Shown: positions 24,203 through 49,518 of the stretch, one piece after another
How positions within the stretch are numbered: position 1 is the first letter of the stretch
Layout: each line of letters begins with the position of its first letter
Source of the DNA: a virus
Taxonomy: Duplodnaviria; Caudoviricetes
Reading direction: 5' to 3' (one strand)
Length of the DNA stretch: 58,423 bases
IMG/VR virus record: IMGVR_UViG_3300027822_000013
Span: 1-58,423 of that record
Translations under genes and position numbers: made by a program
The notes under the pieces: generated by a model
Seen by the model: only the letters and a program-made list of their open reading frames with translations
Database searches by the model: none
Told to the model about the DNA's origin: nothing

Positions 24203-24206
24203 GACA

Positions 24207-26355: not shown

Positions 26356-26700
26356 ATGCAACTCAACCAAATGAACCCCCACATCATCAACGATATGCTC
26401 AGGGATAGTCACCAATGGGTGACCCTTGGACACCTGGAACGAACTTGGGGGATGGTGAAACACAAATATCCCATGCTAGATGATGAAAACTATCACGAAT
26501 GGGTCCTAGAGTTGACCAAGCACCCGTCTGGCCTCCCTGATGACCTTAGACAGACTATCGTACAACTCTTGGGTAAGGGGGTGGTGTTCCGCTATAAGGA
26601 CAACCAAATTGAGGCGAAACATCCCAATTATTACTTCATCAACAATATCCAAGTGGATAAGGATGTCTATGTAAATGCCCAGGAAATATTGAACTGGTAA
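26356..26700 (+). CDS. Hypothetical early protein starting within the repeat head motif
   Basis: AAAGGA RBS; its ATG is the one in CCAGATGCAAC. Confidence 0.65.
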   Translation: MQLNQMNPHIINDMLRDSHQWVTLGHLERTWGMVKHKYPMLDDENYHEWVLELTKHPSGLPDDLRQTIVQLLGKGVVFRYKDNQIEAKHPNYYFINNIQVDKDVYVNAQEILNW

Positions 26701-33098: not shown

Positions 33099-33306
33099 TT
33101 CCTTTCACAGGGTTCATCCATTCCAAGGCACTTTCCAGTGTTTCAATTAATTTCCTGGCTGCTTCTTGAGACATAGAAAAACTATTATCCACACCCACCT
33201 CTGGATGTAGGTGTCTCATTTTTACCATAGGTCCATATAGGGTATCATCTTTGCGGCTTACGTCCAGAAAGCTGTGTCCACTACTCAGTACTATTCTTTT
33301 TGTCAT
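33049..33306 (-). CDS. Hypothetical protein
   Basis: Overlapping operon arrangement. Confidence 0.55.
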   Translation of the reverse strand: MTKRIVLSSGHSFLDVSRKDDTLYGPMVKMRHLHPEVGVDNSFSMSQEAARKLIETLESALEWMNPVKGNDDEVRTEPKSVLPGD

Positions 33307-33781
33307 CCTCTTTTCCTTTCCCTAAGTTGTAGAGATTCAGGGACCTAATCTTACCCCCACTGTAAACATCCCTCATACAGGCAATCTGAACAGCCCAACC
33401 AGCTTGGTCGTGTTCAACAGGGGCGTCTTTCATCCCTGTAAAAGCATCCATGGCTGCTAGAGCAAATTGATATCCAGAACCAAGTGCTGCTGGGGCCTGG
33501 ATTTCGATAGGATGGCCGTTTGTGAATTCTCTCATAATCCCTGAATCCCAAACCCAGAATACAAATTTTACATCAGAGGGTACGGGATAGGTTGAGGGTA
33601 GCAGTTCGGTACTTAGGTACCAATCTATGCAAGGCTGAAAATAGGAAATATCGCCAGCAGAAGCAAACACACTCCCCCCTACCACCTTGATTTTCTCAAA
33701 TTCCATCTCTTCAATGGTGCCGTTACTATGAATCAACCCATCAGCAGCCAAGTTCTGTCCGTCCCAAGCAATAGTAGTCAT
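33281..33781 (-). CDS. HslV / proteasome-like Ntn-hydrolase
   Basis: MTTIAWDG..LAAD N-terminus with Thr nucleophile, AG, ALGSG..FA.AAM and DVYSGG motifs. Confidence 0.8.
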   Translation of the reverse strand: MTTIAWDGQNLAADGLIHSNGTIEEMEFEKIKVVGGSVFASAGDISYFQPCIDWYLSTELLPSTYPVPSDVKFVFWVWDSGIMREFTNGHPIEIQAPAALGSGYQFALAAMDAFTGMKDAPVEHDQAGWAVQIACMRDVYSGGKIRSLNLYNLGKGKEDDKKNSTE

Positions 33782-34053
33782 TTCACTTCCTCTTTCCATT
33801 TAAACCACAACAACCGTACCTTACCGGGTACAAGCTCAACCCATTGTTCCCCCTCAATCCAATCTGCCCAACAGGAAATCCAGCGGAACCAGTTTTCAGA
33901 AATGTCTGGAGGTATTCCATTCACCCCTGTATCGGGAATTGGACCTGTCCATTCATCAGGGCGGTGCATCCAATCGCCCTCACAATGAAGGTTCACGCAT
34001 TCCCATGTACAAGTAGTCTCGTTGTATAATTCCAGCCCCACACTTCGGGTCAT
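33778..34053 (-). CDS. Hypothetical Trp-rich protein
   Basis: ATGA-coupled ORF. Confidence 0.55.
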   Translation of the reverse strand: MTRSVGLELYNETTCTWECVNLHCEGDWMHRPDEWTGPIPDTGVNGIPPDISENWFRWISCWADWIEGEQWVELVPGKVRLLWFKWKEEVK

Positions 34054-34917: not shown

Positions 34918-35150
34918 GAATGTCCCTCCCCCACCAACACCAATCCGGCGGTTATTAGAAAGACCACTAAAACACCAACCCCCATCATAGTTGATTCATC
35001 AGTGGTTAGACCTAGAGCAACCACCCCTAAGGCTTGTAAAGCACATAAGAATAAGATGAAGATGAGAGTAAATCCCCCCGCTACAAAAACTACACCTACC
35101 CTATACATCAGTTTCTTCATTCTGGTTTCCTTTTTTGTACCAGCAGCCAT
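34914..35150 (-). CDS. Small two-TM membrane protein
   Basis: Two hydrophobic helices. Confidence 0.55.
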   Translation of the reverse strand: MAAGTKKETRMKKLMYRVGVVFVAGGFTLIFILFLCALQALGVVALGLTTDESTMMGVGVLVVFLITAGLVLVGEGHS

Positions 35151-35332
35151 CCCACCACCAGTAACAACACTGGTACCGCAACTATTATAGTTACCACTAT
35201 GTCCAAAATAGTTAGCTCATATCGTTGAAACCCTATAAGGACATATGCTGTGTAGTAAAACATAACGGCCATTAAACCCAATCCACAATATACCATAAAA
35301 TACCCAAGTTGTTTCATTCTATCTCTCCCCAA
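35117..35332 (-). CDS. Small two-TM membrane protein
   Basis: Two hydrophobic helices. Confidence 0.55.
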   Translation of the reverse strand: MGRDRMKQLGYFMVYCGLGLMAVMFYYTAYVLIGFQRYELTILDIVVTIIVAVPVLLLVVGWLLVQKRKPE

Positions 35333-37206
35333 CTAGGTCCAGTTTCAACATCTACTTTGCTGGGAACCTCAAGAGGTACACACTCCACCATTATATCGGC
35401 CAGCATCTTTGCATCCTTAGGGGAACCACTCATGTTGATTTCATCGTGTACTTGTAATTGTATTTCCAACCCAGCTTTGTCGGCTTCAACCATGGCCTGT
35501 TTTGTTTGGTCGGCACTACTACCTTGTATAAGTCGGTTAAGAGCTTTATGTGTCCAATCAAACCCACCCCCGTTAATTTGAGGAAACCTGCATTTGCGAC
35601 CCAGGATAGTTCGTATGAACCCAACACGCTTTGCTTGTGTTTCACACTTCTTTGATAACCTCTTTATGTAAGGTGCGTGGTGATTAAAAGTGTCCAGAAT
35701 GTTTTGTGCTTCGGGACCGGCCACCTCATAAACTTTTTCAAATTTCCCACTGCCTTGCCTCCTCATAGCTGTGGGCAATCCAAGGTTTCGTGCTAGTTTA
35801 GCTCCTCCCATTCCATAACAAAGGCCCAAGAAAATATCTTTCGCATAGGTTCTTTTTAGTCCTGTTAGATCAGCCATAAATTGGTGGTTGTCTAGATCAG
35901 GGTTTTCAACATAGGCTTTTACAGCTTTATCAGCCCCACCACACCTAGCCAGATAGGCATAATGGGTGGTCATACGAGGTTCTTGCTGTGAATAGTCGTT
36001 ACAAATCCACTCCCCGTGATCCGGCCTATATATACCGCGCCACTGCTTGGCGTAGGCTCCACGGGAAGGTTGTTGCTGTAGGTTGGGCTGTTCTGAACTT
36101 AACCTCCCAAAGCCTGCGCCTCCTAAGCTGCCGTCATCCTTCTGTTTCCTAAGCTGGTTGAATAAGCAATGAATACGGCCATCCACCATTCTATCCATTA
36201 TGGATTGTACAAAGGTGGTACGCAATTTGTTGTATTGACGAGCCACCAAAATCTGTTTACAAACGGGGTGATCACTTCCTTCAAGAATTGCTTTGTCAAT
36301 CTTGGGTTTCCCGGTCGGGGTTTCTCCCAAGGAAAAATTGATGGCTTTCATGACTGGTACCAGTTTGGCTGCTTTGTATACATCCCCTTCAGCCACCATC
36401 ACCCCACTCAATCGTTTTATTTCGTGCAAGGCAGCTCTTTCGGTTTCCAGTGCCATGTTTGATATTTGGGCTAATCGGTCCTGATCAATCAGCACTCCCC
36501 TCTGCCTCATCTTTAAAAGAACCGGCATAACAGCAGATTCAAGCTCGTATATTTGCCCTAATTCCTGTTTGTCGATTTCTCTTTCTTGTTTCCTCAAAAT
36601 TTGTAGAGGTAACGAAGCATCTTCTTCAGCATAAGGTCCTACATATTCTGCCGGCAAAGTCCATATTTTTCCTTTCCAGCTTCGGGTCTTTAGGTTGATA
36701 CCGTAAGATACACAGGCCTCTTTCATCAAATTCTCTTCTTTACCAGAAAACCCCCACCGTTCCGCAATTGCTTGAAGAGAGTACGATTTATGAAGTTCAC
36801 TGATTAGGGGATCAGCAATCATAACATCAAGAAATCTAGATATACCAGTAAACCGTACACTATAAGCATCAAGCCAATCAAGATCATACTGTAAATTTGC
36901 CCCACATATTATTCCTTCATAGTTTTTGGCTTGATGTCGAAGGTAGTTCATCACGTTCTCTTCAGGAAGGTTCCCCCCTCCCTTATGACCTGTGGGAAGG
37001 TAAAATGAGGGACCATCCTCAATCGCAAAGGATATTCCCGCAATGTGACTATTACCCCGGCGTGCCCCCGGCCCCATTGTAGTTAGGTCAGGATCATTGG
37101 TTTCAGTGTCTATCCCAATCCGCTTAATTCCCTTCCAATCAGGAAGGGAATTAAGGTCAGGGGCAACCCAATCGGAATCAGGTTTAAAGAGAGGCAATTG
37201 ATCCAT
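35314..37206 (-). CDS. polA: DNA polymerase family A with 3'-5' exonuclease
   Basis: IDTET (ExoI), GRLSS..PNLQQ, DYSQQEPR (motif A), R..AK....G..YG (motif B), QVHDE (motif C). Confidence 0.95.
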   Translation of the reverse strand: MDQLPLFKPDSDWVAPDLNSLPDWKGIKRIGIDTETNDPDLTTMGPGARRGNSHIAGISFAIEDGPSFYLPTGHKGGGNLPEENVMNYLRHQAKNYEGIICGANLQYDLDWLDAYSVRFTGISRFLDVMIADPLISELHKSYSLQAIAERWGFSGKEENLMKEACVSYGINLKTRSWKGKIWTLPAEYVGPYAEEDASLPLQILRKQEREIDKQELGQIYELESAVMPVLLKMRQRGVLIDQDRLAQISNMALETERAALHEIKRLSGVMVAEGDVYKAAKLVPVMKAINFSLGETPTGKPKIDKAILEGSDHPVCKQILVARQYNKLRTTFVQSIMDRMVDGRIHCLFNQLRKQKDDGSLGGAGFGRLSSEQPNLQQQPSRGAYAKQWRGIYRPDHGEWICNDYSQQEPRMTTHYAYLARCGGADKAVKAYVENPDLDNHQFMADLTGLKRTYAKDIFLGLCYGMGGAKLARNLGLPTAMRRQGSGKFEKVYEVAGPEAQNILDTFNHHAPYIKRLSKKCETQAKRVGFIRTILGRKCRFPQINGGGFDWTHKALNRLIQGSSADQTKQAMVEADKAGLEIQLQVHDEINMSGSPKDAKMLADIMVECVPLEVPSKVDVETGPSWGEIE

Positions 37207-37666
37207 CAGACCACCCTTTTAGTTCCAAATCAAGCAGAGACCGAAACAAGTTCAACACCAAACCTGGCTTCACGTTAAACACATCCCATTTATTGACATT
37301 AAATTCTGCTGCTTGTTCAAGTAATTCCCAAGCCATGAACTGACTGTCCACAGTCATGCCTTCTGCATAGTCCAGGGGTTCATGAAGTTCATGAAGTACC
37401 AAGATTAGATACCTCCTCAAATCCCGTACATCATCCCTGATACCTTCGTCACGGTCATCATTACCCATAGCCGCCAACAAAGATCGCTGTTGGGTTTGCT
37501 GGCTAATCCGGTCCCACTTTCTAGCCAACATCATAAAGGCCCCTCCCCCTCCCCTCTTTTTCCAACTGTCCCCGTAGTCTTCAGCTTTTTTGATCAAAAC
37601 TTGAACATCGTTCTTTACAATATTCAAGGCAAGATCACCACTGATGCGGCTTAATCGAGTATCCAT
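37184..37666 (-). CDS. Nucleotide-modification-associated domain 1 (Nmad1/DUF1599-like) protein
   Basis: KKAEDYGDSWKKRG..GAFMMLARKWDR and DLRRYLIL motifs. Confidence 0.75.
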   Translation of the reverse strand: MDTRLSRISGDLALNIVKNDVQVLIKKAEDYGDSWKKRGGGGAFMMLARKWDRISQQTQQRSLLAAMGNDDRDEGIRDDVRDLRRYLILVLHELHEPLDYAEGMTVDSQFMAWELLEQAAEFNVNKWDVFNVKPGLVLNLFRSLLDLELKGWSDGSIASL

Positions 37667-37680
37667 TTCATTTTCCTGTT

Positions 37681-38217
37681 TTAATTAGAAGCTTCACAAA
37701 CGGGGTAATACAGAGTTTCCCAAACTCGATATGAGGGTGTTTTATCCACAGCACAGTTTTTGACAAACCAACCATCAATTTTTATCAGAAATTCCATGGC
37801 TTTAGGCCACGACATTTCGTATTGTTCAATTGCCCAGATACCAAGTTCCAGGATGTCAATTTGCTTGAGTATAAACTCCCATCCCGGTTCGAGATTGACG
37901 TGTTGAATCCACCCGTTATCAGAGTTGATCTTATGTTCGATATTTTTGATCATTCTGGCAAACTCAGGGTTGTCCCATTTAACATGAGTTGGTATATCAC
38001 CCAAATCGTATTCGGCTTGGTCGTGGTATAACAACGATAGGATGACATCACGAGGGGCTTGTGGGTAAAGTTCCAGAAGGATACAAATTGCATCGTAACT
38101 GTGTTTACCAACAGTGTAGTCCGGCCCCAAGTGGGTGTGGATGTGGCAGCGTCTTACGTTGCTGCCGTTCCTTAGTCTCCTGATCTTATTTACCTGTTCC
38201 ATATTCCACCCCATCAT
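37681..38217 (-). CDS. HD-domain 5'-deoxynucleotidase (YfbR-like)
   Basis: VRR.H...TVGKHS, LLYHDQAE..LGDIPT and LKQID.LE motifs. Confidence 0.85.
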   Translation of the reverse strand: MMGWNMEQVNKIRRLRNGSNVRRCHIHTHLGPDYTVGKHSYDAICILLELYPQAPRDVILSLLYHDQAEYDLGDIPTHVKWDNPEFARMIKNIEHKINSDNGWIQHVNLEPGWEFILKQIDILELGIWAIEQYEMSWPKAMEFLIKIDGWFVKNCAVDKTPSYRVWETLYYPVCEASN

Positions 38218-39214
38218 CCTTAACCCGATTGTAAGCTTCTTGCCGGCGTCTCAACCATTCAGTACAAGCTTGCCGCCAATCCAGTGCCTTAATCGTTGAT
38301 GCCCAATACATAGCTTCATTGAAGTTTTTTGCCTTGTAGAACTTATGGGACATCTCCATAGGCTGTATTACTTGTTCAAAAAATGGTGTTGCCCACTCAC
38401 GAGGGGAAGGGTTGTCCATTGCCCACTTAAAGAAGTTTTGTAAATCAAGGTCCCATTGTGGATTTCCACTACCAAGCGGGAAGTGGGTATAATCTTCTTT
38501 TTCATAGGGGGTTCCCTTAAACACATTCACTGCCGGGTGGGCTTGTTTCTCTAACACGTCTACATAGGCGTGATAGTTATTACTGATTTGACGATAACGT
38601 CCTATTTTTACCCCGATTTGTTCAGACATGTATTCATGGAGAACAGATAGATGGACTGCGTTGGCCCCATAAGCCCCCCACACAATGTCGTTTGAGCGAT
38701 TGCAGACTGTCATGTCTAGTCGATCATCAGCTGTGATAGAGAAATAAATATGGGTATTACAGGGGGTGTCTTTTCCCTCGTATTTCAAATCAATCCAGGA
38801 ATCCCAAATCCCAAGAACAACCCGGCGGTCATTCGGGTCTTTTCTCAGTTTGTCTATAATCACTTGGATTTGGTCATAGTCAAATCTCCACCGCCAACGA
38901 CTTCCATAAGCCCCATTAAAGATTTCCCCATCATCAGAAAAGGTTTTCATCCTTTTGACGTAACGAGAAACGAATTCAACGTCTTCACGGCCCCCCAACA
39001 TCCAGAGACTTTCCATCAAATGGAAAAAGGGGTTAGCATCCCGTTTTTCATGGAATATAACTCTCTCCAAGGGTTGGTCATATACTGTAGTAACGGGTTC
39101 TGGTGCCACCACCACTTCCCCGGCCCGGCTCTTTCGTCTATCCCCTACTTGCCATAGGAGTTTAACCCCAACTGGTAAGGCTTCATGTACGTTTCTAACT
39201 CTAAGAACTATCAT
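38186..39214 (-). CDS. Thymidylate-synthase-family protein, probable dUMP hydroxymethylase
   Basis: DRRVV, DTPCN, NRSNDIVWG..AN (Asn indicates dUMP specificity), HAY; adjacent to hypermodification genes. Confidence 0.88.
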   Translation of the reverse strand: MIVLRVRNVHEALPVGVKLLWQVGDRRKSRAGEVVVAPEPVTTVYDQPLERVIFHEKRDANPFFHLMESLWMLGGREDVEFVSRYVKRMKTFSDDGEIFNGAYGSRWRWRFDYDQIQVIIDKLRKDPNDRRVVLGIWDSWIDLKYEGKDTPCNTHIYFSITADDRLDMTVCNRSNDIVWGAYGANAVHLSVLHEYMSEQIGVKIGRYRQISNNYHAYVDVLEKQAHPAVNVFKGTPYEKEDYTHFPLGSGNPQWDLDLQNFFKWAMDNPSPREWATPFFEQVIQPMEMSHKFYKAKNFNEAMYWASTIKALDWRQACTEWLRRRQEAYNRVKDDGVEYGTGK

Positions 39215-39497
39215 CTTGGTTTTCTTTCATTTCGTTAAATATGGGGCCATCAATACAGCAGCCACGACCCAACTTGGGCATTTCAACCACCACATGTGAT
39301 ACCTGAAATTTACCATCCTGGTGTGTAAACTCAAACACTCCTTCAGGCTCTAAACCTAAAGCCATCATCAAAGGCCACTGTTGTCTTTGGAACTGTAAAG
39401 CCAATTCGACAGTTTCAAATAGAGTATTGGTGGCTGGAAAAAACACCACATTATCATTGTTGTCTTTCCATTTGGGGGTGTACCCGGTTTCATCCAT
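39201..39497 (-). CDS. Hypothetical protein
   Basis: RBS AAGGA; operon context. Confidence 0.6.
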   Translation of the reverse strand: MDETGYTPKWKDNNDNVVFFPATNTLFETVELALQFQRQQWPLMMALGLEPEGVFEFTHQDGKFQVSHVVVEMPKLGRGCCIDGPIFNEMKENQDDSS

Positions 39498-39810
39498 TTT
39501 TCATTTCCTTATTAATAGGTGTACCAGACCAGGTAAACACCCCAGCCAGCTACAGCCATAGCTGCTGCTAGTTTAAATATCACCATAAAAGCGGCCCAAT
39601 TAGACATAGGGGTCATGTTTGTGTTTCCTCATCAAGTTTTAGTTGTTCTTGTATTAGGGTCAACCGTTACCATATTTCGTGTCGAACTTGGTTTACAGCA
39701 GCTTTATTCAATCCCAACAAACGACGGTAACGAGCTAAATCTGTGATTTCCCATTCTAACTTCATTCTTTCCTGTTTGGTTAATTGAACAGGTTTGGGTT
39801 GTGGTACCAT

Positions 39811-40020
39811 TTAACTGTTTTCCCTGGCATTGTCCATAAGCTCTTTGAATATAAGTTCAACTTTTGGACCCACGTGGGTTTCCACGAATTCATCCATGAT
39901 GCTATTTAACAGTTCAACAGACGTTTTAATTGGTGCCCCGGCCCGATCATATTCCACCATCGCATTATGGCAAATATCCTCCAACTTTTCCTCTAACGTC
40001 ATGTCAATGTTTCCTTCCAT
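39811..40020 (-). CDS. Hypothetical protein
   Basis: Operon context. Confidence 0.55.
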   Translation of the reverse strand: MEGNIDMTLEEKLEDICHNAMVEYDRAGAPIKTSVELLNSIMDEFVETHVGPKVELIFKELMDNARENS

Positions 40021-40931
40021 CTACTCCTTGGGCGTCCTTCCCCTAATTTAGCACGTTGCCATTTATCATATTCACACAGACTATGTTCAATATCTCTCAT
40101 TTCCAAAGCAGGAACCCATAGAGCAATCTTATAGACTGATTGCGCCAGTAGTTCTTGCATCTCTTCCATCAAACTGTCTATCCTCAAATTTGCGTTGATA
40201 GGACGCCCGTGGATACGATTAAGACCCCGCCTTGCTCCAGGACCGGGATTTGCCCAGGTCATGATATCGGGGGCCTCATTCAGATATCTGGTGTGTCGCA
40301 TATCCGTCACCACCTCATAAGAGGTAAACGGCCCCCACCCGTAAAACGAAGCAATATAGGTCCAGGTTTCCTCTTGTGTTTCACATGCCTCAATGACGTG
40401 AGTATGCTTTTTTATCTTGGGCCAGAACTGACCAATCAGTTTACATGCTACGTAATACTGTTTGTCATCATAAAAATCAGCAGCCCTGTCGCTCTCAGCC
40501 CGAACCATATAGGCCCCAGTATAGAGTTTCAATCTTTCCTTTTTTATGCGGTTCATCTCCTTGGCCATTTCAACAGGTTTGAAATTCTTATCGTATGGCC
40601 AGGTTTTTGGGTCCTCCATCAACCGTTCAAGAGTGGGAGGCCAATTAATGGACCTTGCTATGGCCAACATAAACCACAAATAGGGGTGATCCTTGAATGG
40701 TTCCCTGATGTGATTTTTGATCCAAACAGTGACCGTGTCCAACTCTCGAAAAACATTACAGAAACGGTACTGCTGTAGCTCCTTATCCTTGGTATACAGA
40801 CCAGGATAAGGGGAGGATGCCGTAGGCTTATTTCTCATATATCCTTCAGGGATTTCGTGACCCAAGGCCAACTCCCGTCTTAGATATATGGCGTGGCGCT
40901 CATTGATCCAATCGAATAGTGTGTGGGTCAT
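39999..40931 (-). CDS. 5-hmdU DNA kinase (aGPT-Pplase1 / HMUDK family)
   Basis: WINERHAIYLRR, YRFCNVFRELD, GPFTSYEVVTD, GPGARRGL and DIEHSLCEYDK motifs. Confidence 0.88.
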   Translation of the reverse strand: MTHTLFDWINERHAIYLRRELALGHEIPEGYMRNKPTASSPYPGLYTKDKELQQYRFCNVFRELDTVTVWIKNHIREPFKDHPYLWFMLAIARSINWPPTLERLMEDPKTWPYDKNFKPVEMAKEMNRIKKERLKLYTGAYMVRAESDRAADFYDDKQYYVACKLIGQFWPKIKKHTHVIEACETQEETWTYIASFYGWGPFTSYEVVTDMRHTRYLNEAPDIMTWANPGPGARRGLNRIHGRPINANLRIDSLMEEMQELLAQSVYKIALWVPALEMRDIEHSLCEYDKWQRAKLGEGRPRSRWKETLT

Positions 40932-41539
40932 CTTGGAAGGTACTTTCTGATGATGGTGCCCATAGATTTTTCGGGGGCTGTGTGGTCAACTATTTCTACT
41001 TTCTCGCCAGTAAATTTCAACTTGTCTCGAATACCGTTGATGGTTTTGTACTTCGCTGTAATCTGATCCGACTTTACGGGTTTGCCCCCGTTGCGATGTT
41101 GTACCCGTTCAAGACAGGTTTCAATTGGGGTGTCAAGAAATGCCCAAACAAAGGTATGGCCCTCTGCCTGCATCATCTGGGAAAACTCTAACCAAGGTTT
41201 ATAGGTGGTGCCGGCAATGATACCTTCTGCAAACACCACGTCATGTTGCTGAACTGCTGATCTCACACCTTCTTTCATATGGCGTTGGGTACTGATTCGA
41301 TCCATCCCCCCGGAATAAGTCAGGTTGGAATAGTGACCCACCGTACAAATCTCGATAGGCCAGTCAGTATAGAGAGGGGAGTTACTTGAGTCATTGGTAT
41401 TGCCTACCACCCGACCCATTTTTCCCCTATTATTCTCAAACTCCAACAACACTTCTTGTCTTGTGGGGTCTATATAATGACTGACCAGGGTGGATTTCCC
41501 ACTGCCGTTAGTACCTCTGATGTTGATGATTAAACTCAT
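40928..41539 (-). CDS. P-loop nucleotide kinase of base-modification clusters
   Basis: IINIRGTNGSGKST, GGMD and FLDTPIETCLERV..R motifs. Confidence 0.85.
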   Translation of the reverse strand: MSLIINIRGTNGSGKSTLVSHYIDPTRQEVLLEFENNRGKMGRVVGNTNDSSNSPLYTDWPIEICTVGHYSNLTYSGGMDRISTQRHMKEGVRSAVQQHDVVFAEGIIAGTTYKPWLEFSQMMQAEGHTFVWAFLDTPIETCLERVQHRNGGKPVKSDQITAKYKTINGIRDKLKFTGEKVEIVDHTAPEKSMGTIIRKYLPR

Positions 41540-42414
41540 ATTCTTTTCATCTCCCTTAAAAAATCATTAGCAGAATTATTTTCTTCAGCCCAATCACTTA
41601 AGCCATGACTGATCTCGTCAATGTCGTTGTTGAATGGGTAGTGGCCGTTACAGTGGGATTTCCACTTACACAGAATAGTCTCTATTTCCTGTATGTTGAC
41701 CCCTCGATCAAATACAGGGGGAGCTAGGTGGTTGGAAAATATCACCTCAAGGTGGGAAATTGCGAGTTCAATTCCCCGCTCTTTCTCCCCCGGTCTCCAA
41801 TCAAGATAGTTTGAGGATTTGAGGCTGGGGTCCACCCCCTCTTTAAGCTGCAAATACAGTCTCAATGCTGCTTCCTTGGGGTCTTTAAACATCATCACCC
41901 CGTTGGGTTGAAACTCAGTTTCATAACCAAGAACCCGTTCAGCCATGTCTGCGATCTTAAATGCAATCCAAGGACCAAACTGGGGAACTGTTTTGACCCT
42001 TTCTGTAATACCCTCCAATGTGTCAGAAGCGATCATGAAATCCACTGCTGCTTCAGGACGTTTAAACTCCATGGATACGTACTGCAAAGCGTCAAGGGCT
42101 TTTTTACCCCTGAAATGTCGCCGCTCTTTCCCTCTAGGCCATACATCTGATGCCGGGATTTCTACTGGGCACCCCCCTTGTTGGTTCAATACCAAATTAC
42201 AAGCGTGATCAAACCAATACTGGTCTTCAAAATCACTCAACCAGGAAGCAATACCACAATGGTAAAAACACCAATAACCTAACAACCACCGCTTGACCTT
42301 GTCCTGATCCCAGTCTAGTTGAGTCAGTACGTTATAAACTGGGTCAAGGTCTTGTGTCTCAAGAAGTTGAAGCCCGAAATCTTTAATGGATAGTGTTTTG
42401 TAGCGATTATGCAT
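41536..42414 (-). CDS. Amino acid:DNA transferase (aGPT-Pplase2 / AADT family)
   Basis: DLDPVY, YWCFYH, WPRGKERRHFRG, FGPWIAFKIADM and QEIETILCKWKSH motifs. Confidence 0.88.
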   Translation of the reverse strand: MHNRYKTLSIKDFGLQLLETQDLDPVYNVLTQLDWDQDKVKRWLLGYWCFYHCGIASWLSDFEDQYWFDHACNLVLNQQGGCPVEIPASDVWPRGKERRHFRGKKALDALQYVSMEFKRPEAAVDFMIASDTLEGITERVKTVPQFGPWIAFKIADMAERVLGYETEFQPNGVMMFKDPKEAALRLYLQLKEGVDPSLKSSNYLDWRPGEKERGIELAISHLEVIFSNHLAPPVFDRGVNIQEIETILCKWKSHCNGHYPFNNDIDEISHGLSDWAEENNSANDFLREMKRI

Positions 42415-43711
42415 TGAACGGGTCCTTGAAGTCTTTGAGCTTTAGAGCATCAGCCTGTTTCATAATTTCTGAACCACAACCCCCAGAACAAGTCAAACAA
42501 CCTGAAGGCTCACACTCCTTAACTTCTTTGAATCTCTGTGCCGCGCCCTGTCTTTTAAACATAGGTACTTTGTGTCCATGACATTGTTCCGAGGTCATGA
42601 ATTCAGGTCCTATAGAAACACACCCCGGATTAGCATCACGGTATTCATAGCATACTGAATAAGTCATCCCTAGTTTGGTGGCGCATTTTTGGTACCGTTT
42701 ATGTCCTTCCAAACGGTATTCCTGTTCAATAGTCCTTTGACCCCCTATATTCTGGGTGAATAGTTCTCTGAAGGCTGCTGATCTATTATCCCCAAATCTT
42801 TGAGTCATACGAGCTACCATGGCTGGTGCCCAAGAATAACCAGCTTCAACGAATTTTACAATCACATGGTTGGTACCACATGAGGCCAGCTTCTCAAATA
42901 GGATTTCAATTTCATCGTGATCCGTAATACCAGCAATTATTGGGTTCACCTGGATTGAAACATAAATCCCTGCTCTACGCAGCTTCTTGATTTCTTCAAA
43001 ATGGTCCTCAAGAGGTAAGGCCCCCGGTGATAGTTTTTCCCAGTCCATTTGCGTAGCACAATTGATTGACTTTTGGGCATAACTGTACTTACTCTGTTGG
43101 AGTAGGGTTATTGCCCAATCAGGATAGGACAACCGGGACAAAAAGAATATCGGCAAACCCTGCTTCACAAATTCACGTGCCGCAGTTTCGGTGTTGTGGT
43201 AATAGTCTTCAATTGGAAGAAATGGATCACTGAATGATGAGAAATATCCGGCTGCTGATGCCTTCAAGGTTCTCAACTGTTTTTTGATCTGTTCTCCATA
43301 GTGCATGGGAACGGTAGTCAGTCCACTACCTCGATAACCCCTGAAACCAGAATTTATGTAACAGAACGCGCATCCTACAGTGCAGTACCCACCGTAAGGT
43401 TCAGTGAGCATCGCTTCTGTGTAGCAAGGTCTATTACGACCCCTAGAGCCTTTATTGCTGGTTTTGGGTTGGTACCATCCCTGAAGCTGTTTTGCCTTGC
43501 CTAAACGAATATGGGGAATGGGGTCAAGAAAGATTTTAACTTCTTTCTTTTCCTTAGCATTTCTAACCATACCAATCTCGCCCGTGCGCCACCTCATATC
43601 CCGGTCGGTGAGTTCATCATAGGTGATTTGAATTGGCCCTAACCCCTCCTTGGGTTCCGGTCTCATGAAATACTTATAACCTTCTTGCTCTAACTGGTTG
43701 TCACCCGTCAT
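42407..43711 (-). CDS. Radical SAM enzyme (M6 gp53-like isomerase, putative)
   Basis: CxxxCxxC (CTVGCAFC), SFSDPF, extra C-terminal Cys cluster; cluster context. Confidence 0.88.
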   Translation of the reverse strand: MTGDNQLEQEGYKYFMRPEPKEGLGPIQITYDELTDRDMRWRTGEIGMVRNAKEKKEVKIFLDPIPHIRLGKAKQLQGWYQPKTSNKGSRGRNRPCYTEAMLTEPYGGYCTVGCAFCYINSGFRGYRGSGLTTVPMHYGEQIKKQLRTLKASAAGYFSSFSDPFLPIEDYYHNTETAAREFVKQGLPIFFLSRLSYPDWAITLLQQSKYSYAQKSINCATQMDWEKLSPGALPLEDHFEEIKKLRRAGIYVSIQVNPIIAGITDHDEIEILFEKLASCGTNHVIVKFVEAGYSWAPAMVARMTQRFGDNRSAAFRELFTQNIGGQRTIEQEYRLEGHKRYQKCATKLGMTYSVCYEYRDANPGCVSIGPEFMTSEQCHGHKVPMFKRQGAAQRFKEVKECEPSGCLTCSGGCGSEIMKQADALKLKDFKDPFNA

Positions 43712-43716
43712 CGTTT

Positions 43717-44556
43717 TTATCCTATGTTCCAGAGTAATGTGTTGCGGAAGTCATGAATACCCTTACTCATCCACCATTGAAATGCCTTCAGGTCGTAATA
43801 CTCATTACAAGGCCAGGTCGGTTTGATATCCTTCTGTGAGGCTTTATCTTTGTACTGGTACCCTTCATCAACGATGTGGAGGGGGAGTTCAGTAAGGTCT
43901 GCCCCTACTTTCTGTGAAATGTATTTGTATACAGCATCTTTTGATCTGGAATACCCCAAATGGATGATAACAATTGGGGTCATTCCCTTGGTGTACTTAG
44001 ATTCAAGAATACCCTTGATGACCCCGGACGCTATAGTGGCTGATGAAGAAGGAATCAACACTGACGAAAACGATTTCCCCTTTGAATTAAACCAAGCCTG
44101 GGTTCTCAAATACTCCTTGGCTGTTTCTTCAACTGTCTCATCCAGTTTCAGAGCGTTAGGCATCATGTAAGGTTGGTCATAATAGTCCACCAAGTGTTTC
44201 TTTGCCCCGTGGTATAACACTGCTGATCTTCCAGCAGGAAGTCCCACCAGTTTAGCTCCTAAGTCCTTTGCGTGATCCTGGGGTAGCCTATGACCGGGAT
44301 CGTTTTTATATTCGGGATAAAAGTTGATACACTTCTTACCCAAAACACTACAGGCATGAGCCACGGCCCACCCGGCTTGAGAATGAAAGGTATCTAACAC
44401 CCCAATTGAATGTTCCGGTCTTTTCTTCAGGTGGGCAAATACCCCCCTGGTTTTACTAAAGGGAGGTCCGGGTGTGGGGCTACATAAATCTTCACGCTTT
44501 ACCCATAAACCATAAGCATCAATATAGTCTTCAACAGGGGTGTTATTCTTAATCAT
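43717..44556 (-). CDS. PLP-dependent enzyme, fold type II (M6 gp52-like decarboxylase, putative)
   Basis: WVKREDL...FSKTRG, SQAGWAVA, YYDLKA and LLWNIG motifs. Confidence 0.82.
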   Translation of the reverse strand: MIKNNTPVEDYIDAYGLWVKREDLCSPTPGPPFSKTRGVFAHLKKRPEHSIGVLDTFHSQAGWAVAHACSVLGKKCINFYPEYKNDPGHRLPQDHAKDLGAKLVGLPAGRSAVLYHGAKKHLVDYYDQPYMMPNALKLDETVEETAKEYLRTQAWFNSKGKSFSSVLIPSSSATIASGVIKGILESKYTKGMTPIVIIHLGYSRSKDAVYKYISQKVGADLTELPLHIVDEGYQYKDKASQKDIKPTWPCNEYYDLKAFQWWMSKGIHDFRNTLLWNIG

Positions 44557-45494
44557 ACCAGTTCCAATATTTTTGAGGCACGCAGTTCAATTTCTTTTCT
44601 GTTGGGCTTATCCTTGGCCCAATGAGTGGCGGCATTTAGTACGCCCCAATAGGACTCATCCTTGACTTCATCAGAAATGAGTTCTATGTGGTTTTTACCA
44701 AAACCAACCTTGCCCAGGATTTCACGCCGTTCATCAATTCCTGGGGATAATCTTTTCTTATTGGCTCCCTTCATCTGAGTGACCAGCAGTGGAAATTCGG
44801 CAATGATATCCTTGAAGGTTTCTTCAATTCGGTCACTAGACCTTACGTCAAGCAGATCAGGGATGGACATCTCACCAACAGGGTTTGGACGGGTCAAATG
44901 CATCTTAGTTAGGCCCACCACTGAACTGGGGAAGGTTAGACCGTTTTCACATTCCAGTCTGTAGAAATAGGCATTCATTCCCATCCGGGTTGACCCATCC
45001 TGGGAATTATAAAAATAGAACCCGCCTTGAACCACATCCCCTACCGACACGTCAAAGTTAAGTGAAGGGGATCGAAATGAGCAGGACATTTCCGTTTTAG
45101 AAATAGTATGCTGATCCATGATGAAATTATACTCTTCAACCATAGGACGTATGGTGACCAATAAGTCACTATCCGATACCCGGCGATAAGAGGGACTCAT
45201 TATAGCATAAATTGATGATGTGGTTTCCCTAACCATTACAGCTGTTTCTGATGAGAAAGAGGATAACCAGGTGTTGACGTTATACGCCCAAAGATCACCG
45301 TCAATGAACATGCGCCAATAGTAAGCCGGGGGGATGTTGAGAAGAGAACGAAGGTTGGAATGGGCCGATTTATCAAGCTTCTTACCGTTTAGCTGAAATT
45401 CATTATCAGCCACGAGTTCATTGGCATAAACTATTGTGTCTGTACGGCGTTTCTCAATTCCACGACACTTCTTCATTAAAGTTTCAAATTGCAT
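44553..45494 (-). CDS. DUF932-family protein
   Basis: A.MSPSYRR, VGDVVQGG...NS.DG, YRLECENG and YWGVLNAATH motifs; RBS before ATG 45494. Confidence 0.8.
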   Translation of the reverse strand: MQFETLMKKCRGIEKRRTDTIVYANELVADNEFQLNGKKLDKSAHSNLRSLLNIPPAYYWRMFIDGDLWAYNVNTWLSSFSSETAVMVRETTSSIYAIMSPSYRRVSDSDLLVTIRPMVEEYNFIMDQHTISKTEMSCSFRSPSLNFDVSVGDVVQGGFYFYNSQDGSTRMGMNAYFYRLECENGLTFPSSVVGLTKMHLTRPNPVGEMSIPDLLDVRSSDRIEETFKDIIAEFPLLVTQMKGANKKRLSPGIDERREILGKVGFGKNHIELISDEVKDESYWGVLNAATHWAKDKPNRKEIELRASKILELV

Positions 45495-45521
45495 GGTAAA
45501 TATCCTTGTTTCTGATTCCCC

Positions 45522-45558
45522 TCGTTGGTACCTTAACGAAGGCACCAACGAAAGTAAA
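45522..45558 (-). promoter_or_regulatory. Sigma70-type promoter TTTACT-N17-TAAGGT overlapped by a 13-bp inverted repeat
   Basis: TCGTTGGTACCTT-AACG-AAGGCACCAACGA (12/13 match) covers the spacer and -10. Confidence 0.6.
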
Positions 45559-45573
45559 CTAAATTATTCCTGG

Positions 45574-47259
45574 TCAATTACACTCTTTCACTCCCGTCAC
45601 GGGATCAACAGTGCAAGTTTCACCCCCCTCCCCTTTTTGTAACAACCCAGCACGTTTACAAGAAGGTCTGAAAACTGATACGCCTTTACATCCCCCCTTC
45701 CAGGCTTTGAAATAGAGTTGTTCAAAATCTTCCCAACTCACTTCGTCACCACAGTTTACAGTTTTAGACACAGCACTATCTACGTACTTTGATGCGGCAA
45801 TCAATACGTCCATGTGTTCCTGGGCAGTTACCTGATCGTGTGTTTTTCCTCTAACTCCTAATTCCCTGAAAGCATAATCCTGAATTGTCACAACTTTATC
45901 CCCAGTGGGGGTCCGAATTGGTCTGATCGTTTCATAATCAAACACAGGCTCTATACCTCCAGACACATTTCCGGCTGTTAAGCTGATGGTTCCTGTAGGG
46001 GCAATTGAGGTTAGGTGGGAATTACGAAGCCCGTGTGTCTCGATTGCTTTACGGGTCTTGCTGCTCAATTTCTTCCACACACGGGATTTCTTATAGTGGC
46101 CCAAATCAAACTTTGGGAAGGCACCTTTTTCCTTGGCTACCATAGCTGAAGCTCTGTAACTGTGATCCAGGATGGTGTTCAATATATCTTCCATGACTTC
46201 TATGAACAAGGGTGAACCGTAACTGAACCCCATAGCTTCGATTGTATTGGCCACCCCAGTTACTCCAATACCAATACGGCGTTTGGCTTTGGCTTCTTGC
46301 TCCATTTCGTGAAGGGGGTACTTGGATTTGTCGATAACCATATCCATAGCCCGAACTATTGAGGGGATGTCTTCTATCAACAATTCGTTATCAAAGAAGT
46401 AACCCGTGGGTGTTTTGGAGAGGTATTTTGGGAGGTTGAAACTGCCCAGGAGGCAAACACCGTTGGGTGGTAGGGGTTGTTCCCCGCAGGGATTAGTGGC
46501 CGCAATAGTTTCACAGTAGCTAAGAGCATTATTGTTGTTGATGGTGTCCAAGAATAAGATACCGGGTTCAGCCCAATCCCAAGCTGATCTCATTATCTGG
46601 TTCCATAACGTGGCAGGGTCAATCGTCTTATATACTTGACCCCCCCATTTCAAATTGAAGGGTTTACCCTTCTCCAGACATTCCATGAATTCATCAGTCA
46701 TACCGATTGAGAGATTGAACCCGGTTAATTGATCAGTGTTCTGTTTACAATGGATAAATTCTTCAATGTCTGGGTGATCTATTCGCAACACCCCCATTTG
46801 AGCACCCCGGCGGTGTCCTGATGAGGCAACACATAACCCCAACGCATTAAAGATATGCATAAAAGGAACAGGACCTGATGAATTTGAATTCAACTTTTTG
46901 ATCAAAGCTCCTTTTGGACGTAGGGTGGAGAAGTCGTAACCATTTCCACAACCCATCCTCATTATAGTGGCTGCTTCCTTGACGATGTCCATGATACAGT
47001 TTTTACCATCAACCATTGAATCTTCTATTACTGAAGAAACAGCGCAATTGAATGACGTTACTGCTTTGGTTGAACCAATTGATGATTGTACTCTCCCCGC
47101 CGGAATGAACCTCATCAATTTAAAGATATGTCTCAATTTATCATAGTGGGAGGTCTCACTGGTAAGTCCTCCAGCTATTCGATTTGCTGCCTCCCTACGT
47201 GTTTCACCATCAAGACGATGTTTTGAGGCCTGAAGCTCCTCAAAGAATTCATATGACAT
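45574..47259 (-). CDS. nrdJ: Class II (adenosylcobalamin-dependent) ribonucleotide reductase
   Basis: PAGR, NC, RRGAQMG, TNPCGEQ, CLLGS, IAPTGTIS and a C-terminal Cys pair; no beta subunit recognised. Confidence 0.9.
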   Translation of the reverse strand: MSYEFFEELQASKHRLDGETRREAANRIAGGLTSETSHYDKLRHIFKLMRFIPAGRVQSSIGSTKAVTSFNCAVSSVIEDSMVDGKNCIMDIVKEAATIMRMGCGNGYDFSTLRPKGALIKKLNSNSSGPVPFMHIFNALGLCVASSGHRRGAQMGVLRIDHPDIEEFIHCKQNTDQLTGFNLSIGMTDEFMECLEKGKPFNLKWGGQVYKTIDPATLWNQIMRSAWDWAEPGILFLDTINNNNALSYCETIAATNPCGEQPLPPNGVCLLGSFNLPKYLSKTPTGYFFDNELLIEDIPSIVRAMDMVIDKSKYPLHEMEQEAKAKRRIGIGVTGVANTIEAMGFSYGSPLFIEVMEDILNTILDHSYRASAMVAKEKGAFPKFDLGHYKKSRVWKKLSSKTRKAIETHGLRNSHLTSIAPTGTISLTAGNVSGGIEPVFDYETIRPIRTPTGDKVVTIQDYAFRELGVRGKTHDQVTAQEHMDVLIAASKYVDSAVSKTVNCGDEVSWEDFEQLYFKAWKGGCKGVSVFRPSCKRAGLLQKGEGGETCTVDPVTGVKECN

Positions 47260-47270
47260 GACTACTCCTA

Positions 47271-48425
47271 TTAATTATATACCAGGGTTACTGATTCCTG
47301 GGCTCGTGTGATTGCAGTGTAGAGCCATTTCCACCTGTTATTTCTAAAGGCAGATGACTCATCGTAAATGAGCACAGAAGGCCATTGACTACCTTGAGAT
47401 TTATGGGTGGTGATTGCGTACCCATAGTCAAACTCTAAAGCATCAAATTTTTCGTGGTATGGTATTTTTTCCCCCAAGAATATCCCGCTGTGTGACCTTA
47501 CGACCTTACCCGAATCAAGCTCCATTACAACTTGTGAATAAGGGTCTTTTGAAATGATTTCTTCAACAGTGGATAACTCACCGTTGAGGATTTGGGCATC
47601 CTTATCGTTGCGAAGGCAGATGACTTTGTCCCCCTCAACGGGTAAGGTGTCCTCAATCCCCTTTATCTCCCTTACCCGGTGGTTAAAAGCACATCTCGTG
47701 ACATTACGACCAACAAGCATTTGATCGTGTTCCATCACCATTTCAGCATTCATAAAAATCCTGTCAATCACCCTGCTTTCCCCGTATTCCCCCGGTTCAG
47801 GGTGACGGTGTGACCTAACTTCTGTGGCTAACCTGATAATGGGGTTATCTTTTGCTTGACGATGAATTTCAGTCAACATTATTTCTGGGTTATTCATCAT
47901 AAAATACCCCTCCCCTTTTACTGGAGGAAGTTGAGCCGGGTCACCCATAACAAGAATTTTAGTACCAAATTGCATCAAGTCTAGAGCGATTTTCTCATTG
48001 ACCATAGAACACTCATCCAGGATCAATAGATCAGCATCACCCAACTCTGAATCAAGGTTCAGGGTGAATCCTGGTTGAGCAATATTGTCCTCTTCAATCT
48101 CAATGTCCCTCTCAAGTTCAGGGGATGGATCATGAAGAAATTCTGCTCTCAATTCCTGGAGCTTCTTTTTACTCTTCTCAAGGGGATGGTAAATCAGTGA
48201 GTGAATTGTGGATGCCTCTGGGCAACCGTTAAGCTTCATCACACTAGCAGCTTTGCCGGTGTAGGCACTAAATTTTACGTCTTTTATCCCTTCTGCTATC
48301 TTTTTAGCTAAGGTTGTTTTACCCGTTCCTGCATAACCAAATAAATGAAAGACTTGGTCATCAGACTTAAGCCAGCGAGAAATATCACACAAAGCTTTAT
48401 CTTGTTGGGGAGAGTATTTCACCAC
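47271..48425 (-). CDS. RecD/Dda-like SF1B helicase
   Basis: GYAGTGKT, DECSM, GDPAQLPPV, HKSQGS and YTAITRA motifs. Confidence 0.92.
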   Translation of the reverse strand: MVKYSPQQDKALCDISRWLKSDDQVFHLFGYAGTGKTTLAKKIAEGIKDVKFSAYTGKAASVMKLNGCPEASTIHSLIYHPLEKSKKKLQELRAEFLHDPSPELERDIEIEEDNIAQPGFTLNLDSELGDADLLILDECSMVNEKIALDLMQFGTKILVMGDPAQLPPVKGEGYFMMNNPEIMLTEIHRQAKDNPIIRLATEVRSHRHPEPGEYGESRVIDRIFMNAEMVMEHDQMLVGRNVTRCAFNHRVREIKGIEDTLPVEGDKVICLRNDKDAQILNGELSTVEEIISKDPYSQVVMELDSGKVVRSHSGIFLGEKIPYHEKFDALEFDYGYAITTHKSQGSQWPSVLIYDESSAFRNNRWKWLYTAITRAQESVTLVYN

Positions 48426-48703
48426 GGTATCTCATTGCCCAATATATCGAAGCCTGACGCTTGGCAGTTTTGTCTGATGGACTCAAGGGAATGGTGTTTA
48501 GTTTCTAAGTCCAGGGAACATAAACCAGTCCCTGTATGTGTTGCAATTCTCCTGATAGTGGTTTTTAGGGATTTGATTTCTTCTTCTTGTGATTTAAATC
48601 TTTTGGCAGGTTTGTCTTCATCGGTCATGGTAATTACCTTTTTAAAAATAGAAGGCAAGATGGTTGGATTGGCCAACCGTTTCAGAGGGGACATGCGCGT
48701 CAT
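48419..48703 (-). CDS. Hypothetical protein (start probably MTDEDK)
   Basis: Operon context. Confidence 0.45.
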   Translation of the reverse strand: MTRMSPLKRLANPTILPSIFKKVITMTDEDKPAKRFKSQEEEIKSLKTTIRRIATHTGTGLCSLDLETKHHSLESIRQNCQASGFDILGNEIPW

Positions 48704-48750
48704 GCCGCATCTTGCCGTGTCTAGGTTCGGTCAAGGAGGGAACCCCGAAC

Positions 48751-49518
48751 CTAGAAGGGGGTGTCACCATCTTCTGCTTTACCGGCAGATTTGGTATCAG
48801 CATGGGCTGTACCTGAAATCACAGCTTCTTTACACATTTTGGCCGCAACGTAGAGATCATTATCAGGCATAACCATTGACCCCCTTAGATCACCATTTGC
48901 TGGAGAAATCACCATGTTGTAGAATTTACCCTTGGGGTTTTCCTGCTTGATTGAGGTCAGTTTATTGAGGTGGGAAAACAAGGGTGGTCGGACTTTACGA
49001 CCACCAGGACCAGGTACTGTAAACATTTTCAATCTTGTATTCCAGCGTTTGTAGACACCAATCTTAGTACTGGTGAATGGTATGACCACAGTGTTACCAT
49101 CGTCCAATACCCCATATACATAGAAAGTTTCCACCAGGTCATTTTCATCAGGGGTGATGTATTTCCCAAATTCCTGGTTTTCCTGACAATGTACTACTAC
49201 ATCATCACCCGGTCTATGAATGCCGGCAATTCCACCACCTTTTTCTCGTGGTATCCATTCAACAAATACATGTTCGGTATATGCTGCAACGAAGTTCACT
49301 TCATCATAAACTTCTTCAGTTACCGTATTGAGGAATTGTCCCGCTTTGCCGTTACCTTCCTCAACTGTCGGGGATAATTGCTGAAGTACGCTCAAAAACG
49401 GAATGGACATATCATCCTGGGATTGGCCTTCAAAGCCGCCCCCTACGTCATCCCCAAAATCATATTCACTTTCTGTTGCCACCTTAGTGGGTTTCTTCTT
49501 TGCTACGGCTCTTGCCAT
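48751..49518 (-). CDS. Single-stranded DNA-binding protein (putative)
   Basis: GFEG...IPFLSVLQQLSP, EW.PR..GGG, acidic C-terminus ending DTPF. Confidence 0.7.
   Translation of the reverse strand: MARAVAKKKPTKVATESEYDFGDDVGGGFEGQSQDDMSIPFLSVLQQLSPTVEEGNGKAGQFLNTVTEEVYDEVNFVAAYTEHVFVEWIPREKGGGIAGIHRPGDDVVVHCQENQEFGKYITPDENDLVETFYVYGVLDDGNTVVIPFTSTKIGVYKRWNTRLKMFTVPGPGGRKVRPPLFSHLNKLTSIKQENPKGKFYNMVISPANGDLRGSMVMPDNDLYVAAKMCKEAVISGTAHADTKSAGKAEDGDTPF

Follow-up and report, generated by a model that had tools for sequence, protein, structure and literature searches.

Which modified base, if any, does the gene cluster at 37184-44556 of IMG/VR virus record IMGVR_UViG_3300027822_000013 allow its phage to build into DNA? 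The record, whose full 58,423 nucleotides (nt) are called the window below, represents most of the genome of a marine siphovirus that is uncultured and distantly related to the M6-like phages. Pseudomonas phage M6 itself converts part of its DNA thymine to 5-(2-aminoethyl)uracil (Lee et al. 2018, PMC5889632; Lee et al. 2021, PMC8989533). In the latter study, 5-hydroxymethyl-2'-deoxyuridine (5-hmdU) in DNA is phosphorylated by purified M6 gp54 and glycine is attached via its amine by purified gp51; the glycine adduct is isomerised by gp53 in a reaction that depends on S-adenosylmethionine (SAM) and a reductant, and gp52 decarboxylates the isomer to 5-(2-aminoethyl)-2'-deoxyuridine (5-NedU). The original prediction for this cluster, drawn from the letters of the window, had described the M6 pathway just as that study established it and had proposed a complete set of its enzymes here. 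Judging from gene content and conserved residues, we consider it likely that the window encodes a working thymidine hypermodification pathway of the M6 type, with 5-NedU as the most likely product.

Genes of the modification cluster

The genes with M6 counterparts are listed here in the order of transcription, with the family or search that identified each:

43717-44556, minus strand: fold-type II pyridoxal phosphate (PLP) enzyme, orthologue of M6 gp52 (PF00291, phrog_7093, BLASTP)
42407-43711, minus strand: radical SAM enzyme, orthologue of M6 gp53, the N-alpha-glycinylthymidine (hereafter N-alpha-GlyT) isomerase (phrog_9252, BLASTP)
41536-42414, minus strand: amino acid:DNA transferase (clade 2 aGPT-Pplase, or Pplase2), orthologue of M6 gp51 and PaMx11 gp46 (PF18724)
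40928-41539, minus strand: P-loop 5-hmdU DNA kinase (5-HMUDK), orthologue of M6 gp54 (PF18748, 'HMUDK_HMUD1')
39999-40931, minus strand: HMUDK_hel / aGPT-Pplase1 protein, orthologue of M6 gp55 (PF18723)
38186-39214, minus strand: thymidylate-synthase-family enzyme, orthologue of M6 gp58 (PF00303, phrog_5131)
37681-38217, minus strand: HD-domain YfbR-like 5'-deoxynucleotidase, orthologue of M6 gp59 (PF12917)
35314-37206, minus strand: family A DNA polymerase (PolA), orthologue of M6 gp62 (PF00476)

All modification genes between 37184 and 44556 are intact, closely packed open reading frames (ORFs) on the minus strand, transcribed in the order PLP enzyme, radical SAM enzyme, transferase, P-loop kinase, HMUDK_hel protein, four small ORFs, thymidylate synthase (TS) homologue, HD protein, a 160-aa protein and then PolA. 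Adjacent genes overlap by 4-32 nt or are separated by 0-14 nt; the small ORFs stand as much as 50 nt apart, and the largest gaps of the cluster (39617-39666 and 39498-39511) are found between them. Consensus scans of 35000-49000 found 15 promoter sites where shuffled sequences led us to expect 25.5, and 13 terminator sites where 13.9 were expected; since neither count rises above the shuffles, it is the packing of the genes alone that points to a single transcription unit. The nine co-oriented genes named in the original prediction are all present as intact minus-strand ORFs with family or orthologue support. Its range of 37184-44556 holds for all of them except PolA, which lies outside apart from a 23-nt overlap. 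One of its labels had to be moved: the protein that it called a 5-hmdU DNA kinase is the M6 gp55 orthologue (aGPT-Pplase1 with a helical domain), and the gene that it listed as a P-loop kinase is indeed the orthologue of gp54, the proven kinase.

All four enzymes defined in M6 have full-length orthologues in the window with their catalytic residues intact, in agreement with the complete set that had been proposed. Catalytic residues were compared by aligning each window protein with its counterparts from M6, Pseudanabaena cyanophage Pam3 and Rhizobium phage RHph_I72 (four sequences), and BLASTP identities are to the annotated M6 proteins. The radical SAM enzyme is 59% identical to M6 gp53 over its full length, belongs to phrog_9252 (8e-184) and carries the motif CTVGCAFC, letter-identical to that of M6, while its match to PF04055 scores 20.9 bits, under the cut-off of 29.5. 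Seven further cysteines (C96, C354, C377, C400, C405, C408 and C412) are invariant in 4/4 sequences, a pattern that fits a second Fe-S cluster. The PLP enzyme is 48% identical to M6 gp52 over its full length and matches PF00291 (35.6 bits, cut-off 35) and phrog_7093 (4e-67). The lysine of its FSK motif, kept in all four sequences, aligns with K36 of M6 gp52, described as the PLP lysine (PMC8989533), and the enzyme is predicted to decarboxylate C-alpha-glycinylthymidine to 5-NedU. A sequence search of the PDB at E<=0.01 returned no match for the radical SAM, PLP or gp55-like proteins.

The transferase matches PF18724 (2e-14, 54.2 bits, cut-off 26.2) and is 39% identical to M6 gp51 over its full length and 39-41% identical to the proven glycine enzymes; in the PDB sequence search it matched 8z2m, the PaMx11 glycinyltransferase, at E 2.8e-62. 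Its motif ETILCKWKSH keeps the essential Cys249 and Glu245 (the catalytic residues of Pplase2 are also given in PMC11472151). The YuA Pplase2 has been solved with 5hmdU-DNA and glycine, and its donor pocket is made up of D24, E96, K159, K248, Y257 and D262; a diamine transferase is reported to have become specific for glycine when, at the K248 and Y257 positions, G was replaced by K and D by Y (PMC13458397). All six pocket positions are kept in the window protein, as D24, E97, K153, K250, Y259 and D264. Its two switch residues are K, immediately following the catalytic Cys, and, at +10, Y; the putrescine enzyme PhiW-14 gp109 has G and D there. Glycine is therefore the predicted donor. A quick maximum-likelihood tree was built from 73 rows, namely 66 ORFs of more than 220 aa from IMG/VR loci and seven references, shorter ORFs being dropped. 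In this tree the window transferase falls in a 27-row clade (SH-aLRT 90) with M6 gp51 and PaMx11 gp46, both proven glycine transferases, and apart from the clade of Pam3 and RHph_I72 and from PhiW-14 gp109. None of the branches that include the window protein reaches a support of 95. Among cultured phages, 96 records match the transferase.

The kinase matches PF18748 (1e-15, 58.1 bits, cut-off 27), is 36% identical to M6 gp54 over its full length and has an intact Walker A motif, GTNGSGKS. The HMUDK_hel protein matches PF18723 (3e-45) and is 44% identical to M6 gp55, likewise over its full length; gp55 is reported to be dispensable for N-alpha-GlyT formation in lysates (PMC8989533). Profile searches for the HMUDK and amino acid:DNA transferase families, which had been suggested as a check, matched PF18748, PF18723 and PF18724, as given above.

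The TS homologue is the only gene of its family in the window, in which no TET/JBP dioxygenase was found, so it is the only candidate source of 5-hmdU. It matches PF00303 (1e-18) and phrog_5131 (6e-120), is 49% identical to M6 gp58 over its full length, and has both the catalytic PCN cysteine and a dUMP-type Asn at the base-specifying position. In the PDB it is matched best by CMP 5-hydroxymethylase (5b6d, 3.6e-13), the best thymidylate synthase following at 1.7e-10, and all six of its matches to NCBIfam ThyA equivalogs are far under the cut-off. Of 554 matching records of cultured phages, 96 cover at least 80% of the protein, and those listed among them are of the M6, PaMx11, Bordetella-phage and Rhizobium-phage types. 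The next tier of relatives is formed by SPO1-like Bacillus phages and ViI-like Ackermannviridae, groups with DNA derived from 5-hmdU. Part of this background is given in PMC5889632. A role of the enzyme as a dUMP hydroxymethylase making 5-hmdUMP is predicted and supported, not proven.

Two further genes would act on the nucleotide pool and in replication. The HD protein matches PF12917 (6.5e-8, 32.9 bits, cut-off 25.9), is 36% identical to M6 gp59, keeps the H...HD...D residues and would deplete canonical dTMP or dTTP precursors. PolA matches PF00476 (2e-47) and is 55% identical to M6 gp62 over its full length. The family of PolA proteins fused to uracil-DNA glycosylase in SP-15-like and YerA41-like phages, described in PMC13697223, was set aside as a different polymerase group.

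The remaining ORFs of the cluster and the gene directly upstream of it are less readily assigned:

44553-45548, minus strand: DUF932-like protein, 331 aa, directly upstream of the PLP enzyme gene (PF06067, phrog_1362)
39811-40020, minus strand: small ORF, 69 aa (ORF list)
39667-39810, minus strand: small ORF, 47 aa (ORF list)
39512-39616, minus strand: small ORF, 34 aa, hydrophobic (ORF list)
39201-39497, minus strand: small ORF, 98 aa (ORF list)
37184-37666, minus strand: 160-aa all-helical protein (PF07659 under cut-off; Pam3 gp54-like)

The 160-aa protein, which the original prediction had named Nmad1, is probably a divergent member of that family (DUF1599). In favour of the name, 27 of its 30 ESM-Atlas feature matches lie in clusters with DUF1599 in 16-75% of members, which we take as a lead only; the label is nevertheless weak, since the protein scores 14.3 and 15.9 bits with PF07659, whose cut-off is 25, and none of seven IMG/VR homologues matches this model at E<=0.1. 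Pfam scans also found no PF07659 match in Pam3 gp54 or M6 gp60/61. The protein is 41% identical to Pam3 gp54, annotated by its depositors as 'nucleotide modification', and its family has the common motif Y-G-D-S-W-K-R-R-G-G...R-K-W-D-R...D-L-R-R-Y. Its AlphaFold model (pLDDT 68.7) is all-alpha; it gave no informative PDB match and nothing in Foldseek at E<=0.001, and VIA-align returned middling helical-bundle matches with a best Z of 8.5. The entries 2a3q and 2p06, which we take to be MazG-like pyrophosphatases, scored Z 6.2-6.4 against the model, within noise. A dTTPase role of the kind described for gp18 of phage 15599 (PMC13458397) would be conjectural for the 160-aa protein.

The four small ORFs (39201-40020) fill the slot held by Nmad5 in M6 and Pam3, and the 98-aa and 69-aa ORFs have no Pfam, PHROG or NCBIfam match. 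The DUF932-like gene overlaps the start of the PLP enzyme gene by 4 nt and is translationally coupled to it. Its product matches PF06067 at 21.8 bits (cut-off 23) and phrog_1362 at 8e-22, and 29 of its 30 Atlas matches are in DUF932 clusters. A homologue was found in none of 80 IMG/VR radical SAM loci (E<=1e-5), and the protein probably stands outside the pathway.

Several genes of related phages are missing. Absence was tested by a six-frame tblastn of the window with 29 PaMx11, M6 and Pam3 proteins at E<=0.01. Four of the queries matched (PaMx11 gp46 and gp45, M6 gp63 and Pam3 gp54) and 25 did not, the latter including gp47 (flavin lyase) and gp48 (acetyltransferase) of PaMx11, the M6 dCMP deaminase gp65 and, anywhere in the window, both Nmad5 queries (M6 and Pam3). 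The absence of flavin lyase, acetyltransferase, deaminase and Nmad5 is also the outcome of Pfam scans of the 81 ORFs and of family searches that covered the entire record, and in the scanned ORFs Pfam found no methyltransferase, acetyltransferase, flavoenzyme, amidoligase or glycosyltransferase domain. The original prediction had recognised neither the two enzymes of the PaMx11 branch nor a dCMP deaminase, and both observations are borne out by these searches. The deaminase gene directly follows PolA in M6, RHph_I72 and many IMG/VR loci; this region is intact in the window, so the absence is not an artefact of the 7% of the genome that is missing.

The cluster is widespread in phages. Among cultured phages, 69 records match the radical SAM protein, with the following hosts:

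Pseudomonas: 53
Bordetella: 9
Rhizobium: 2
Sphaerotilus, Stenotrophomonas, Pseudanabaena, Escherichia and Bacillus: one each

With the single radical SAM protein as query, IMG/VR yielded only two loci; with the four-sequence alignment it yielded 100, the best of them 67% identical, and 80 were kept. Gene content was scored with hidden Markov models from one to four sequences per family against stop-to-stop ORFs of at least 50 aa (E<=1e-5). The radical SAM gene is flanked by at least 5 kb on both sides in 32 of the 80 loci, and 27 of these 32 hold all six core genes; the HD gene is present in 20, the dCMP deaminase in 12, Nmad5 in nine and the 160-aa family in four. In the 57 loci that have transferase, radical SAM, PLP and kinase genes, the M6 order occurs in 26, the order of the window in 16 (one with a duplicated kinase hit) and the order kinase-radical SAM-transferase-PLP in the remaining 15. 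Duplicated kinase or transferase matches were seen in some related loci (L025, L093). Another (L075) lies within a 288-kb contig, and the pathway is therefore also found in much larger phage genomes. Contigs with M6-like content were reported by Lee et al. (2021), who searched IMG/VR v2 and GOV2.0 (PMC8989533); the cluster has thus already been described from metagenomes and represents no new chemistry.

The proposed pathway and its alternatives

In the pathway that we propose, the TS-family enzyme would make 5-hmdUMP from dUMP, host kinases would convert this to the triphosphate for incorporation by the phage's own PolA, while the HD nucleotidase, and perhaps the Nmad1-like protein, would bias the pool against canonical T. 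After replication, by orthology with M6, the P-loop kinase would phosphorylate 5-hmdU in DNA to 5-phosphomethyl-2'-deoxyuridine (5-PmdU). The Cys of Pplase2 would then attack C6, with expulsion of the phosphate and addition of glycine via its amine, to give N-alpha-GlyT. On the same grounds, the radical SAM enzyme would move the link from N to C-alpha and the PLP enzyme would decarboxylate the product to 5-NedU. A fraction of T would bear a primary amine, which may hinder host restriction endonucleases. For the extent of T replacement and for protection from restriction we infer from homology, leaning for the protection on the Discussion of PMC8989533 and on PMC6449724.

This proposal is favoured because orthologues of M6 gp51, gp52, gp53, gp54, gp55, gp58, gp59 and gp62 (36-59% identity) stand in one co-oriented, overlapping string, in which the catalytic residues and the six residues of the glycine pocket are kept. 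It is further favoured because the transferase groups with the proven glycine transferases in the quick tree, with PhiW-14 gp109 outside, because a hydroxymethylase, ahead of any ThyA, is the best PDB match of the TS homologue and no alternative tailoring enzyme was found, and because the six-gene set recurs in 27/32 IMG/VR loci. Several points weigh on the other side. The identity to characterised enzymes is only moderate, 36-39% for the kinase and transferase, and that members of this TS clade, the M6 enzyme included, act as hydroxymethylases is a deduction in PMC8989533 too. Nmad5 and the dCMP deaminase are absent though M6 has both; only 9/32 and 12/32 related loci, respectively, have them. 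A step that we do not recognise could be contributed by the four small ORFs or the coupled DUF932 gene. CheckV puts the completeness of the record at 93%, and the phage is uncultured and known as a metagenomic contig, which may have been assembled from the one sequencing run in which it is present.

An unlikely outcome is that the same scaffold leads to another final base, either because the donor of the transferase is a different small amine or amino acid or because 5-NedU is tailored further by a neighbour, such as the gp55-like protein, the DUF932-like protein or one of the small ORFs. The donor choice of Pplase2 enzymes is set by few residues and is diverse in the family (PMC13458397), the window enzyme is only 39-41% identical to proven glycine enzymes, and four unannotated small ORFs and the coupled DUF932 gene are there to supply a further activity. 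Yet all six glycine-pocket residues are kept, and the enzymes that act on the glycine adduct, radical SAM and PLP, are the best conserved of the set (59% and 48%). As to further tailoring, none of the scanned ORFs has a methyltransferase, acetyltransferase, flavoenzyme, amidoligase or glycosyltransferase domain, and the absence of the DUF932 gene from 80/80 related loci argues that it is not a conserved part of the pathway. A more specific and quite doubtful idea is that this marine lineage has a stripped-down M6 core, without Nmad5 and dCMP deaminase, in which a private DUF932-like or small-ORF gene may either add a step leading to a base other than 5-NedU or replace the function that turns remaining 5-hmdU into T.

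It would also be conceivable for the cluster to be a relic or to work differently, the TS homologue being an ordinary thymidylate synthase and the DNA containing only T or only unprocessed 5-hmdU. The match to PF00303, the inferred status of the activity in this TS clade and the lack of a dCMP deaminase to raise the dUMP supply would suit such a reading, which we nevertheless regard as very improbable: all ORFs are intact with their catalytic residues kept, and the kinase and transferase would have no substrate unless 5-hmdU were present, for which no alternative TET/JBP source exists in the window. The TS homologue, moreover, stays under all six ThyA cut-offs and has a hydroxymethylase as its best PDB match.

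The genome and its host

The window (1-58,423) is a linear IMG/VR record of 58,423 bp, 93% complete according to CheckV, with a G+C content of ~45% along its whole length and nearly all genes on the minus strand. PHROG and Pfam scans show a siphovirus layout with TerL, portal, MuF-like protein, scaffold, major head protein and connectors, along with the tail tube, chaperones, tape measure, distal tail protein and a J-like central fibre. The replication block comprises a SNF2 helicase, proteins like Pam3 gp32/33/34, a Dda helicase, a class II-like ribonucleotide reductase (RNR), PolA and a primase. The contig ends interrupt the tail-fibre region, where ORFs are cut at both ends (3-545 and 57987-58421), and not the replication block; the missing ~7% of the genome probably belongs to the tail-fibre module. 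Two collagen-like repeat proteins are encoded nearby (55433-55897 and 56911-57228). Scans of the whole window for tRNA genes and Rfam families were empty. The sole sequencing run holding the DNA of the window is labelled marine metagenome and may itself be the source; no RNA runs holding the stretch are listed.

When the 81 ORFs of the window were compared with related phages by tblastn (E<=1e-5), the following numbers were matched:

M6 (whole genome): 28 window ORFs, mean identity 42%, structural and replication modules
Pam3 (search covering the first 50 of its 54.5 kb): 17 window ORFs, mean identity 44%, replication and modification alone
RHph_I72: 16 window ORFs, mean identity 42%, replication and modification alone
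Roseophage RDJL3: 16 window ORFs, mean identity 38%, mainly structural

The alphaproteobacterial host suggested by the original prediction is plausible, though unproven, because of the marine source, the roseophage-like head genes and the matches of the tail tip. The top match of both TerL (59.6%) and the major head protein (53.6%) is roseophage RDJL3, and the top-scoring matches of the J-like tail-tip protein are Brucella, Paracoccus, Rhizobium/Sinorhizobium and Rhodobacter phages at 27-31%, with Vibrio phages lower. On the other side, Bordetella and Pseudomonas phages reach 51-55% with both head genes, so that the margin of RDJL3 over them is small, and there is no direct link to a host, although no search of CRISPR spacers or prophages was made. 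The hosts of Mesyanzhinovviridae, as given in the Lydia paper, include alpha-, beta- and gammaproteobacteria (PMC11946847). An alphaproteobacterial host would not be the first for the cluster, since Rhizobium phages already carry it.

Apart from the modification genes, the replication block encodes an NYN-domain protein (28200-28727; PF01936, 5e-33), a phosphoheptose-isomerase-like protein (28729-29118; phrog_1238) and an HslV-family peptidase-like protein (33281-33799; phrog_1040). The stretch at 20565-22396 (~1.8 kb) has no ORF of at least 80 aa on either strand, only ORFs of up to 74 aa, and contains three tandem-like 27-nt repeats at 21791-21901. It is followed by a region of small ORFs on mixed strands with repeated intergenic cassettes (22300-26400). 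A 32-nt box, TAATCCCC...AACCAGATGCAAC, occurs there in five copies (23316, 23708, 25158, 25855 and 26333), a 78-nt unit with a 16+16 hairpin occurs in two copies that are 92% identical (22792 and 23736) and in a weaker one (25884), and a 62-nt unit, which combines a GC hairpin with a strong ribosome-binding site, occurs at 23371 and 25210. These cassettes look like phage-specific promoter and terminator modules.

Comparison with known systems

Roseophage RDJL3, the closest match for the head genes, has an ordinary TS, dihydrofolate reductase and deaminase and no modification genes. Its thymidylate synthase (25153-26043) is aligned with an Asp at the position of the base-specifying Asn of the window protein and of ThyA-type enzymes; this could point to a different substrate or be an artefact of the alignment. 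The systems of ViI/CBA120, which make 5-(2-aminoethoxy)methyl-2'-deoxyuridine (5-NeOmdU), and of PhiW-14, which makes putrescinyl-T, share with the window the logic of 5-hmdU, 5-HMUDK and Pplase2 (PMC8989533). However, the ViI transferase was not matched at E<=1e-3, PhiW-14 gp109 is only 27% identical to the window transferase and has G/D instead of K/Y, and neither phage has a radical SAM enzyme in the account of PMC5889632.

The PaMx11 cluster for 5-acetylaminomethyl-2'-deoxyuridine (5-AcNmdU; gp46-gp49) shares with the window the kinase, glycine transferase (40%), TS, HD and gp50-like genes, but gp47 and gp48 are lacking in the window and radical SAM and PLP enzymes stand in their place. 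Rhizobium phages RHph_I72 and RHph_I65 have the full set of radical SAM, PLP, Pplase2, kinase, Pplase1, TS, HD and PolA genes at 33-57% identity, which means that cultured phages with alphaproteobacterial hosts already have the pathway. Unlike the window, these phages are myovirus-like, with baseplate genes and a dCMP deaminase, and have no structural genes in common with it.

In gene order the window is matched by Pam3 (genes 43-56), in which PLP, radical SAM, Pplase2, kinase, Pplase1, TS, HD, Nmad1-like and PolA genes follow one another identically and the flanking gp32/33/34-like, Dda helicase and RNR genes are also shared. Pam3 differs in being a myovirus without structural genes in common with the window, in having Nmad5, an HNH insert and extra ORFs, and in a transferase that falls in a different clade of the quick tree.

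M6 and YuA share with the window the four defined enzymes, the gp55-like, TS-like, HD and PolA genes, and the same motifs and glycine pocket. The window departs from M6 in the order PLP-radical SAM-transferase-kinase, which in M6 is transferase-PLP-radical SAM-kinase, in lacking Nmad5 (M6 gp56), the dCMP deaminase (gp65) and the DUF3310 protein (gp61), and in its marine origin, G+C of ~45% and head genes nearer to those of RDJL3. The comparison adds a divergent lineage of marine siphoviruses to the range of a DNA hypermodification pathway that has been characterised, and places a Pam3-type gene order on an M6-like siphovirus. It also provides divergent, motif-complete sequences of a radical SAM isomerase and a PLP decarboxylase, for neither of which the PDB sequence search found a structure.

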